A DNA stretch of 27,422 bases. Origin: Chloroflexota bacterium. Its GTDB lineage: Bacteria; Chloroflexota; Limnocylindria; Limnocylindrales; CSP1-4. The notes beneath the pieces are model-generated. The model did not search any database and was not told the origin of the DNA. It worked only from the letters and a program-made list of their open reading frames with translations. Every line of letters starts with the position of its first letter. Position 1 is the stretch's first letter. The translations under genes and the position numbers were made by a program. The stretch lies in NCBI GenBank assembly GCA_034666905.1, contig JAXDKX010000017.1, positions 1-27,422 of the forward strand. Direction: 5' to 3'. This document shows positions 2,651 through 3,976 of the stretch, piece by piece.

Positions 2651-3976
2651 ATGGCCGATGTGCTGACCACCCCGGCGGACTGGCCGGCGATCCTCCTCGC
2701 GCGGCCCGCGGCGGCGGACCCAACCGACCTCGACGCGGCGGTGCGGGCGGGCGCCTTCGATGGCCTGCGTCGCGCGATCCGGGACCTCGGAGCGACCGGA
2801 ACCATTGCGACGATCGGCGCTTCCGGCCTGCGCGGCCGCGGCGGCTCGGGCTTCCCGACGGTCGAGAAATGGCGCGTGGCGTCGAACACGGAGGCGCCTC
2901 GACGCTACGTCGTGGCCAACGGGTACGGCGCCGACCCGGCAGCCGGCACGGATCGGTTCCTGATGGAGGCCGAACCGTTCGCGGTGATCGAGGGAGCCGC
3001 GATCGCGGCGTTCGCGATTGGGGCGACGGAGGCGATCATCGCTGTCCGCACGGAGGCAACCGAGACGATCCGACGCGTGGAGGCGGCCCTCGCTGCAGCC
3101 GAGGACGCCGGCTTTCTCGGCTTCGATGTTTTCGGCTCCGGACTGGACCTCACGATCTCGGTTCGTGGCGTCCAGGGCGCGTACATGCTCGGCGAGGAGA
3201 CCGTGCTGCTGAAGGCACTCGAGGGCAAGCGCGGCCAGCCCGAGCAGCGGCCCCCGCACCCGGCCGAGCGAGGCCTGCACGGGATGCCGACCGTCGTCAA
3301 CAACGTCCAGACCCTGGCCGCCGTGCCCTGGATCCTTCGACACGGCGCGCCCGCGTTCGTCGCGACCGGGAGGCCAGGCAACGCGGGAACGATCCTGGTC
3401 CAGGTGCGGACGCCGGCCGGAGCCGGCATCGCAGAGGTGCCGCTTGGGACGCCACTTCGGACGGTCGTCGAGCTCGGCGGTGCCCTGCCCCAGGGCCGCA
3501 CGATCAAGGCCCTCCTGATAGGCGGCCCATCCGGCGGCCTGCTCCCGGCCGAGCTGCTCGACACGCCCTACGACTTCGAGTCGCTTCGCGCCGTGGGCGC
3601 CCATATCGGCTCGGGTTCCGTGGTCGTGGCCGACGACCGGGCCTGCGTCGTGGACCTGGCCCGACTGCTGACGCGGTTCTGCGCGAACGAGGCCTGTGGC
3701 AAGACGATCCCGTGCCGGATCGGGACCCGCCGGCTCGTCGAGATCGCCGATCGGATCGTCGATGGGCGACCCCGCCCGACGGATCCCGAGCTCCTGGCCG
3801 ACCTGTCGACCGACATCGTGGCCTCGGCGTTGTGCGACCACGAGCGGCTGACGACCTTCCCGCTCTCGAGCGGGATGCGATACTTCCGGTCCGAGCTCGA
3901 CGAGCACATCCTGCGCAGCTCCTGCCCGGCCGGCGTCTGCCACCCGATCGCGGTGGCCGCCGGCGCGATCCCATAA
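2651..3976 (+). CDS. nuoF: NuoF/HydB-like flavoprotein subunit with divergent cofactor motifs (441 aa)
   Basis: SGLRGRGGSGFPTVEKW, GAYMLGEET, GLHGMPTVVNNVQTLA, GGPSGG, CGKTIPCRIG, C-terminal EHI..SSCPAGVC. Confidence 0.85.
   Translation: MADVLTTPADWPAILLARPAAADPTDLDAAVRAGAFDGLRRAIRDLGATGTIATIGASGLRGRGGSGFPTVEKWRVASNTEAPRRYVVANGYGADPAAGTDRFLMEAEPFAVIEGAAIAAFAIGATEAIIAVRTEATETIRRVEAALAAAEDAGFLGFDVFGSGLDLTISVRGVQGAYMLGEETVLLKALEGKRGQPEQRPPHPAERGLHGMPTVVNNVQTLAAVPWILRHGAPAFVATGRPGNAGTILVQVRTPAGAGIAEVPLGTPLRTVVELGGALPQGRTIKALLIGGPSGGLLPAELLDTPYDFESLRAVGAHIGSGSVVVADDRACVVDLARLLTRFCANEACGKTIPCRIGTRRLVEIADRIVDGRPRPTDPELLADLSTDIVASALCDHERLTTFPLSSGMRYFRSELDEHILRSSCPAGVCHPIAVAAGAIP

Follow-up and report, generated by a model that had tools for sequence, protein, structure and literature searches.

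What becomes of the 51-kDa-type subunit of complex I, the textbook NADH/flavin mononucleotide (FMN) entry site of the enzyme, when its flavin site is rebuilt and its gene is kept? This question is raised by a nuo operon on a 27.4-kb contig (27,422 nucleotides; JAXDKX010000017.1 of assembly GCA_034666905.1), here called the window, from a Candidatus Limnocylindria (Chloroflexota) metagenome-assembled genome that is 78% complete. The operon lies on the + strand, as do all features of the window given below, and reads nuoD (truncated by the window edge), nuoH, a fusion of the N-terminal half of NuoI with a NuoE remnant, the 51-kDa-type gene F', the gene G', nuoJ, nuoK, nuoL, nuoM, and nuoN. The original prediction, made from the sequence alone, had described F' as an undisrupted NuoF-like subunit with a remodeled FMN/NADH site and a cluster N3 motif lacking one cysteine, and had proposed a noncatalytic scaffold or an altered cofactor or cluster, with electron entry moved to a GltD-like domain. 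We found that F', G', and the NuoI-N/NuoE fusion genes form an Nfn/Stn-type (Bfu family) module inside a split nuoI gene. Judged by domain content, Limnocylindria have built an Nfn/Stn-type transhydrogenase module into their complex I by splitting nuoI. The reading that we favor, with somewhat better than even confidence, is that F' is a re-purposed Nfn/Stn B subunit that serves as a cluster-bearing side-branch scaffold, with electrons entering at the flavin adenine dinucleotide (FAD) of the GltD-like domain of G'.

The F' gene (2651..3976) is an open reading frame (ORF) of 441 aa without an internal stop, and its product passed both the PF01512 (Complex1_51K) and PF10589 (NADH_4Fe-4S) profiles, at 134 bits (cutoff, 31.2) and 71 bits (cutoff, 23.5), respectively. 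It missed the cutoffs of the NuoF equivalog models (TIGR01959 / NF010120), scoring 350.6 bits against the 558.65 required for TIGR01959 and 275.6 against 389 and 246 against 749 for other NuoF models. By both sequence and fold, the closest solved chains were 9bov_B, 7q4v_B, 8oh5_B, and 9n5u_B (NfnB/StnB/HydB), and true NuoF chains ranked below them. The AlphaFold model of F' (predicted local distance difference test [pLDDT], 91.7) matched 9n5u_B, 9bov_B, and 8oh5_B with a template modeling (TM) score of 0.93, a root mean square deviation of 1.3 to 1.6 Å, and 40 to 41% identity. In a tree of 122 homologs, all of the nuo-embedded F' sequences, namely those from Limnocylindria and five distant representatives at 38 to 58% identity, formed a single clade (Shimodaira-Hasegawa-like approximate likelihood ratio test [SH-aLRT], 92) nested in the Bfu-B half (split, 97). 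This clade lay far from complex I NuoF (420- to 445-aa representatives) and from the formate dehydrogenase-type paralog of the same genomes.

F' also carries the zinc site of the Bfu family. The B2 zinc site of Bfu B subunits is ligated by three cysteines and one histidine (PMC11829005), and F' has C332, H419, C425, and C430 (3644..3940), each in 79/79 of the species-level Limnocylindria loci, 69 to 89% identical in F', that make up our conservation set. It has neither the N-terminal thioredoxin-like (B5) nor the C-terminal ferredoxin (B3/B4) domains, the terminal cluster domains by which bifurcating B subunits are defined (PMC9304861). At 441 aa rather than 550 to 800 aa, it starts 50 residues ahead of the Gly-rich loop and stops 11 residues past the zinc site, and Pfam finds the two core domains only. 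Taken together, fold, tree, and zinc site identify F' as a trimmed BfuB (NfnB/StnB-type) subunit and not a true NuoF. The label "NuoF-like" therefore did not hold, so the NuoF consensus strings against which the sequence had been read are the wrong yardstick for some of its motifs. The current annotation of these genes as NuoF (NADH-binding) is probably wrong on both origin and function.

An exhaustive search supplied 106 canonical representatives, against which we set the 79 F' sequences at the 86 positions that were at least 85% conserved in the canonical set. In F', 68 of these positions were kept, 8 were relaxed, and 10 had switched to another conserved residue: D to Y92 (79/79), E to G93 (75/79), G to A94, Y to A131, A to V185, E to Q220, S to A348, C to T352, L to H397 (79/79), and G to E398 (79/79). 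With the exception of A131, the switched positions all belong to the flavin/nicotinamide site or to cluster N3/B1, which bears out the claim that the changes are concentrated there. Further departures are C to L180 (at a canonical-conserved position), I/M to H318 (79/79), and G to S323. The motifs listed in the original prediction were all found where it had placed them in the ORF, except that CDHE reaches 3844, 9 bases past the end of the range 2918-3835 that had been given for them. The deviations at residues 92, 93, 94, 180, 220, 348, 352, 397, and 398 are real. The substitutions are also shared, to an extent well outside what chance would give: among the 79 loci, NGYGADP[AS] recurs in 74, GAYMLGEE in 74, PEQRPP[HY]P in 77, xNVQT in 76, and CGK[TS]IPC and LC[DE]HE in all 79.

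We mapped these residues onto solved structures by gap-free alignments, in which F' residue r corresponds to r+103 in Thermococcus sibiricus NfnB, r+91 in Caldicellulosiruptor saccharolyticus NfnB, and r+2 or r+3 in Aquifex aeolicus NuoF; the T. sibiricus, C. saccharolyticus, S. ovata, and A. aeolicus numberings were used, since that of A. woodii HydB (PMC10021017) gave inconsistent positions. The Gly-rich loop GLRGRGGSGFP (residues 59 to 69; 2825..2857, with GLRGRGG itself at 2825-2845) is intact, as claimed. In NfnB, this loop (loop 1) grips the phosphate of FMN and the ribose of NADH, with the adenine-stacking Phe-159 and Gly-156 (PMC11829005). NGYGADPAAGT (residues 90 to 100; 2918..2950, with NGYGADPA at 2918-2941) stands in place of N-A-D-E-G-D-P-G-A-F-M. 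Within it, Y92 replaces, in every species, the equivalent of Asp-195 of T. sibiricus NfnB, a proposed stabilizer of the flavin semiquinone (PMC12018979), and Gly93-Ala94-Asp95, of which D95 is kept, stand where A. aeolicus NuoF has the Glu95-Ser96-Glu97 triad that contacts nicotinamide (PMC11677225). The AFM motif is gone, with residues 98 to 100 in its place and position 99 variable. GAYMLGEE (residues 176 to 183; 3176..3199) keeps Y178, G181, E182, and E183 and has L180 for the conserved Cys. NNVQT (residues 217 to 221; 3299..3313) keeps N218 and T221, with Q220 in 78/79 and position 217 relaxed (H/Q/N). Loop 3, which contacts nicotinamide and reads TGAIMGSGG in NfnB (PMC11829005), is GAHIGSGS in F' (residues 316 to 323; 3596..3619), with His318 and Ser323 as new invariant residues.

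The other side of the pocket has been left alone. In PEQRPPHP (residues 197 to 204; 3239..3262, with PEQRPP at 3239-3256), the invariant R200 corresponds to Arg-303 of T. sibiricus NfnB, which forms a salt bridge to the NADH phosphate (PMC12018979), and residue 203 (H/Y) corresponds to the adenine-stacking Phe-294 of C. saccharolyticus NfnB (PMC11829005). This motif had been counted among the deviations, but its Arg is the majority state in Bfu-type B subunits (R in 67 and K in 38; n = 106), where Tyr or His at 203 is also common. All reported adenosine, ribose, and pyrophosphate contacts of NAD(H) are in fact retained: F/Y68 (C. saccharolyticus Phe-159), G65 (Gly-156), K73 (Lys-164), E183 (Glu-274; T. 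sibiricus Glu-286), R200, H/Y203, the Gly-rich loop, and GGPSGG. On the FMN side, N90, D95, Y178, N218, and T221 are retained. As far as sequence can tell, then, the redox half of the F' pocket is rebuilt and the ADP half is untouched, and the latter may still bind some nucleotide or flavin.

The second change concerns cluster N3/B1. The first motif, A-C-G-K-T-I-P-C (residues 348 to 355; 3692..3715, with CGKTIPC at 3695-3715), keeps C349 and C355, has T352 in place of the second Cys, and has Ala348 in place of the Ser adjoining the first cluster cysteine. The second motif, L-C-D-H-E (residues 394 to 398; 3830..3844, with CDHE at 3833-3844), keeps C395, and both H397 and E398 are invariant. Where NuoF has four N3 cysteines, F' thus has C349, T352, C355, and C395, with T or S at position 352 in 79/79 species. 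The codon at 3704-3706, where Thr had been predicted, is ACG and in frame, and we rejected a sequencing error or frameshift at Thr352 on these grounds.

Loss of Cys352 never comes alone. Among 143 embedded homologs sampled around two queries, residues 352 and 398 were Thr and Glu in 75, Cys and Gly in 66, Ala and Glu in 1, and Ser and Glu in 1; no sequence combined Cys with Glu or a residue other than Cys with Gly. The two states switch four times on the tree, always jointly. A further Limnocylindria lineage has Ala352 with Glu398 in 119/119 sequences, and no exception to the coupling was seen in ~260 sequences. The canonical set, all of which has Cys352, has Gly398 in 101/106. Because Ala is unable to ligate iron and positions 396 and 397 vary among the Cys352-less lineages, Glu398 is the sole constant companion of the loss. 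We considered His397 or Asp396 as the replacement ligand and found it less likely than Glu398, since other Cys352-less lineages have Leu397 and Gly, Ala, Lys, Gln, or Arg at position 396, with Glu398 constant throughout.

The covariation points to a ligand swap giving a Cys3-Glu [4Fe-4S] cluster as the simplest reading and makes a [3Fe-4S] cluster less likely. Both had been put forward in the original prediction, and it is the alternatively ligated cluster that the perfect coupling favors. B1/N3 would persist as a [4Fe-4S] cluster on Cys349, Cys355, Cys395, and Glu398, with Glu398 substituting for the lost second cysteine; a Gly398 that had to stay small, as it would pack against Cys352 and the cluster, would give way to a carboxylate holding the fourth iron. 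Non-Cys ligands of [4Fe-4S] clusters next to flavins have precedents in the Glu of NfnL and the Lys of NfnA/StnC (PMC12018979, PMC10482914).

The partners of F' have been remodeled as well. The 226-aa fusion protein encoded just upstream (1966-2646) consists of the NuoI N-terminal half (residues 9 to 83; 1990..2214), with one CxxCxxCxxxCP motif, followed by a NuoE/NfnC-type helical domain (residues 118 to 187; 2317..2526) without the [2Fe-2S] thioredoxin-like domain. This NuoE remnant covers just positions 2 to 64 of the 145 in the profile, and the fusion protein has no Cys past residue 70; the C1 [2Fe-2S] cluster that the BfuC/NuoE partner of a BfuB subunit contributes to the flavobicluster B1-FMN-C1 is missing. 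The place of the [2Fe-2S] domain is taken by a Cys-free tail (residues 199 to 217; 2560..2616) that is clade specific and has no counterpart in solved structures. Its residues R199, P200, Y205, A212, and L213 are each at least 90% conserved (24 species), and modeling places it against F', next to the zinc site and the opening of the nucleotide cleft.

That the NuoE remnant binds F' is supported by complex prediction. The pair gave an interface score (ipSAE) of 0.79, versus 0.00 for the best control; the mark applied to this score is reached by 58/80 solved complexes and 2/110 mismatched pairs, the runs agree in at least 46% of contacts, and the partner pLDDT is at least 66. Solved NuoE-NuoF-type complexes exist, and part of this pass may reflect likeness to them. 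All of the confident modeled contacts run from tail residues 200 to 217 to F' residues 96-97, 177-178, 293, 325-346, and 427-429, and the tail may serve as a plug or an anchor. In two loci of sister lineages whose F' is nearer canonical (L082:6156-7001 and L084:6135-7004), the NuoI-N/NuoE fusion is longer, at 281 to 289 aa, and still has part of the thioredoxin-like domain, with 3 or 4 unusually spaced Cys (CxCxxC...C). The NuoE part and the F' pocket seem to have eroded in parallel.

Downstream, G' (3984..6596; 870 aa) comprises a [2Fe-2S] domain (residues 38 to 113), a GltD-like FAD/NAD(P)H domain with two [4Fe-4S] clusters (residues ~135 to 550), a NuoG-type ferredoxin domain, and the C-terminal half of NuoI (residues ~750 to 838; window 6231-6497). 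It matched chain A of C. saccharolyticus NfnABC (9bov) with an E value of 2e-159 and also matched StnC (8oh5) and T. sibiricus NfnA (9n5u). Its last ~90 structured residues align to the second half of NuoI/TYKY (e.g., Thermus thermophilus Nqo9 74-168), and a His/Gly-rich tail (GNGNGHGHAHGNGHGG) follows at the C terminus. Going by its domains, G' alone is a complete NAD(P)H-oxidizing unit. The earlier suggestion that electrons enter at the GltD-like domain is thus a plausible one: the FAD/NAD(P)H domain in this next gene is complete and strongly constrained.

Other 51K-type genes of these bacteria provided a within-genome control. A second such gene in five near-complete relatives keeps NADESEPG, GAYICGEE, PRNKPPFP, NNVET, and CGQCVPC; it encodes a NuoE-NuoF fusion and adjoins the gene for a formate dehydrogenase alpha subunit. 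At two loci (L088:6647-9699 and L089:7659-10789), such a fusion is followed by a [2Fe-2S]/ferredoxin/Mo-Fe4S4 protein, an arrangement of the soluble NAD-linked formate dehydrogenase type; the molybdopterin part seems to be encoded by an ORF of its own, perhaps owing to a split, a frameshift, or selenocysteine. The five relatives have two or three PF01512 matches each, the extras being this formate dehydrogenase-linked fusion and distant soluble types. A second canonical NuoEFG was not found in the window's own, 78%-complete assembly, which has one PF01512 match. The module-bearing complex I appears to be the only complex I of Limnocylindria. PntB, the beta subunit of the membrane transhydrogenase (~590 bits), was present in 5/5 near-complete Limnocylindria genomes (G001-G005), which makes an NADPH-only pump metabolically feasible and says nothing beyond that.

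How might such a complex work? Because C1 and the extra B-subunit domains are gone and the flavin-ring side is rebuilt, F' would no longer take hydride from NADH as the NADH:FMN entry point. Electrons would enter at the FAD of the G' GltD domain and pass through the G' clusters to the fused NuoI half (N6a/N6b), then to N2 and quinone. In the soluble Stn/Nfn enzymes, the NADPH path runs from FAD through two GltD clusters, A3, A2, and the A1 [2Fe-2S] cluster to B1 and FMN, and a second branch (A4/A5; C1/C2 in Stn) is considered vestigial (PMC10482914, PMC11829005). Here, this second branch is replaced by the NuoI C-half directly behind the G' ferredoxin domain, so that the exit to N6a/N6b, N2, and quinone would leave from G', and the old main line from A1 through B1 to the flavin site would turn into a dead-end side branch. 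F' would be kept as a structural bridge: the NuoI N-half is joined to the NuoE remnant, the remnant would bind F', F' would bind G', and G' is joined to the NuoI C-half. In Stn, subunit A makes contact with B alone, and B is the sole subunit in contact with C (PMC10482914). Since each NuoI half is covalently tied to a neighbor of F', F' would close a ring that holds the two halves together. The side-branch clusters may also buffer electrons.

Several observations weigh against a side-branch scaffold. The kept adenosine-side contacts and several FMN-side residues would be expected to drift if nothing bound. The sister lineages with the same operon have a near-canonical site save for Asp to Tyr/Ile/Phe and Cys to Leu, and FMN binding may therefore not have been lost clade-wide. 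A B1 cluster that is kept and re-ligated could equally mean that electrons are still carried from a flavin in F'. The coupling of residues 352 and 398 gave p = 0.25 in a sign test with three independent pairs on well-supported branches, a test that cannot reach significance with three or four such pairs; the argument is the absence of any exception. The noncatalytic scaffold proposed originally thus has the rebuilt flavin-ring side in its favor, whereas the complete set of NAD(H) adenosine/pyrophosphate contacts and the Gly-rich loop tell against it. On these points, F' might instead still be a working flavoprotein that binds FMN (or another flavin) and oxidizes NADH via a re-tuned site, sending electrons through B1 (Cys3-Glu, with a shifted potential) to the [2Fe-2S] cluster, the G' clusters, and NuoI, in which case the complex would be a dual-input NADH + NADPH:quinone oxidoreductase. 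The Gly-rich loop, K73, E183, R200, F/Y68, Y178, N90, N218, T221, and GGPSGG are invariant or nearly so, as this explanation would have it; B1 and the G' [2Fe-2S] cluster are both retained, the cluster is re-ligated instead of lost, intermediate lineages have near-canonical pockets, and these aerobes have no canonical NuoEFG, only the formate dehydrogenase-linked fusion and distant soluble types. It must, however, accommodate the exchange of the N-A-D-E Asp and Glu for Tyr and Gly in 79/79 and 75/79 F' sequences. Both acidic residues occur in all 106 canonical homologs, but by how that set was picked; they are also kept in the within-genome paralog, which was not so picked. AFM is lost, and loop 3, Q220, and A348 are altered. 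The neighboring NuoE-type [2Fe-2S] cluster is missing, and the model places the tail of the NuoE remnant at the cleft mouth. G' would suffice alone to oxidize NAD(P)H, its gene is under the strongest constraint in the operon, and with PntB in all five near-complete relatives, NADH can reach an NADPH-fed pump. A dual input is possible, but we regard it as doubtful.

The intact adenosine half and the rebuilt redox half, with its new invariant polar and aromatic residues (Y92, H318, H397, E398, and Q220), would also suit a pocket that now binds a regulatory adenine nucleotide (ADP-ribose, NAD(P)+, or ADP), or a metal via Tyr92/His318/Asp396/His397, and that senses the redox or energy state without hydride transfer. 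The new residues are equally explained by the filling of an empty flavin cavity and the re-ligation of B1, and D396 and H397 are not constant in other Cys352-less lineages; a changed ligand of this kind strikes us as very improbable. Improbable, too, is that F' is a redox-dead fold turned to regulation or buffering, with a dead-end Cys3-Glu [4Fe-4S] cluster and an old NADH cleft that is either plugged by the tail of the NuoE remnant or binds an adenine nucleotide gating flow from GltD to the pump. If true, this would be an allosteric or "electron parking" device, and we know of no complex I with one. A dispensable, pseudogene-like remnant of an input module would account for catalytic-site residues and a cluster ligand that are off consensus and for the missing partner domains, but its frame would not be expected to stay open or its substitutions to be fixed. 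In F', 119/441 positions are invariant across the 79 species, and F' is present in every operon examined, down to 38% identity. Pairwise Nei-Gojobori dN/dS was 0.25 for F', 0.26 for nuoH, 0.22 for the NuoI-NuoE fusion, 0.29 for nuoJ, 0.28 for nuoL, and 0.14 for G', values that are inflated in absolute terms by bias in GC content at third codon positions, are to be compared between genes, and come from species sets that differ somewhat by gene. F' is therefore as constrained as core membrane subunits; it is intact and under purifying selection. The check that the original prediction had asked for, of conservation and dN/dS, thus gave fixed substitutions and no scattered decay. Simple decay, whose probability we put close to nil, is refuted by this conservation, and F' is better seen as a re-purposed part kept by a whole class of soil Chloroflexota.

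The nearest relatives of the module among known systems are NfnB/StnB of C. saccharolyticus (9bov/9bp5), T. sibiricus (9n5u/9n5v), and S. ovata (StnABC, 8oh5). They share with F' the core fold, the 3Cys-1His zinc site, and the neighbors, a NuoE-type subunit before and a [2Fe-2S]+GltD+ferredoxin subunit after. Unlike them, F' is without the B3/B4/B5 domains, its partner is without the C1 [2Fe-2S] cluster, its flavin/nicotinamide-side residues are replaced, its second B1 Cys is Thr with Glu398 gained, and the module is fused to both NuoI halves within a nuo operon. With NuoF/Nqo1/NDUFV1, F' has in common the Complex1_51K and NADH_4Fe-4S domains, the N3 position, and the nuo operon, but it falls below the equivalog cutoffs, branches with Bfu-B, has the Bfu zinc site, and has a changed acidic loop and one changed N3 ligand. 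Its gene, moreover, lies between the nuoI halves, whereas canonical nuoF lies between nuoE and nuoG after nuoD.

Bfu-type input to a complex I-like pump has been predicted before. Schut et al. (2022; PMC9304861) described predicted Nuo-Bfu complexes of Geobacter, Deferribacteres, Planctomycetes, and Nitrospirae in which a Bfu-type module takes the place of NuoEFG, as it does here. Those complexes have a complete BfuBC core (FMN and six clusters), a predicted NADH + ferredoxin confurcation, and the normal EFG position, whereas the present module, of the Nfn type (with GltD), has lost its bifurcating parts and lies within nuoI. The mbx-like operons of Degli Esposti (2015; PMC4758237) have a gltD-related flavoprotein in the place of NuoI and so resemble the Limnocylindria operon in wiring a GltD-type NAD(P)H flavoprotein straight to the NuoI position; they differ in having no NuoF/BfuB-like subunit and no split NuoI and in belonging to a different, hydrogenase-related membrane complex. 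The proposed ligation of B1 resembles that by the Glu of NfnL (NfnSL) and by the Lys at A7/C7 of NfnA/StnC, each of which combines three Cys with one carboxylate or amine ligand near a flavin (PMC12018979, PMC10482914); these were seen in structures, whereas the F' ligation is drawn from covariation and concerns a different cluster, B1/N3. A stripped B subunit whose flavin site is rebuilt and whose B1 shows a Cys-to-Glu exchange occurs in none of these systems. Literature searches for Limnocylindria with complex I and for nuoI with glutamate synthase and Chloroflexi returned no description of this arrangement, the nearest being PMC9304861 and PMC4758237, and the F' variant is apparently new to print.

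Limnocylindria are abundant in soils and lakes. If F' is a scaffold and entry has moved to a GltD-type FAD domain, the N-module of complex I can be exchanged, and its parts put to new use, without loss of the pump. The coupled Cys-to-Thr/Ala and Gly-to-Glu changes amount to a natural experiment in N3/B1 re-ligation and offer a clean target for spectroscopy and mutagenesis. N3/B1 adjoins the flavin and matters for electron gating and the production of reactive oxygen.

The exact sequence of the window was also present in a soil metagenome run. Soil metatranscriptome contigs from relatives ~88 to 90% identical cover 3688-3966; they are short and could come from DNA carry-over, and we did not count them as evidence of transcription. 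Two of these metatranscriptome runs look like one data set deposited twice. The same operon, with F' always between the two fusion proteins, was found in lineages down to 42% F' identity, and at 38% identity the operon is reduced, with nuoB alone next to the module. In this distant relative (L091:5746-10774), the module is preceded just by nuoB and a 134-aa protein of unknown function; nuoA, C, D, H, and J-N were not found near it, and it could be a soluble or otherwise-anchored form.

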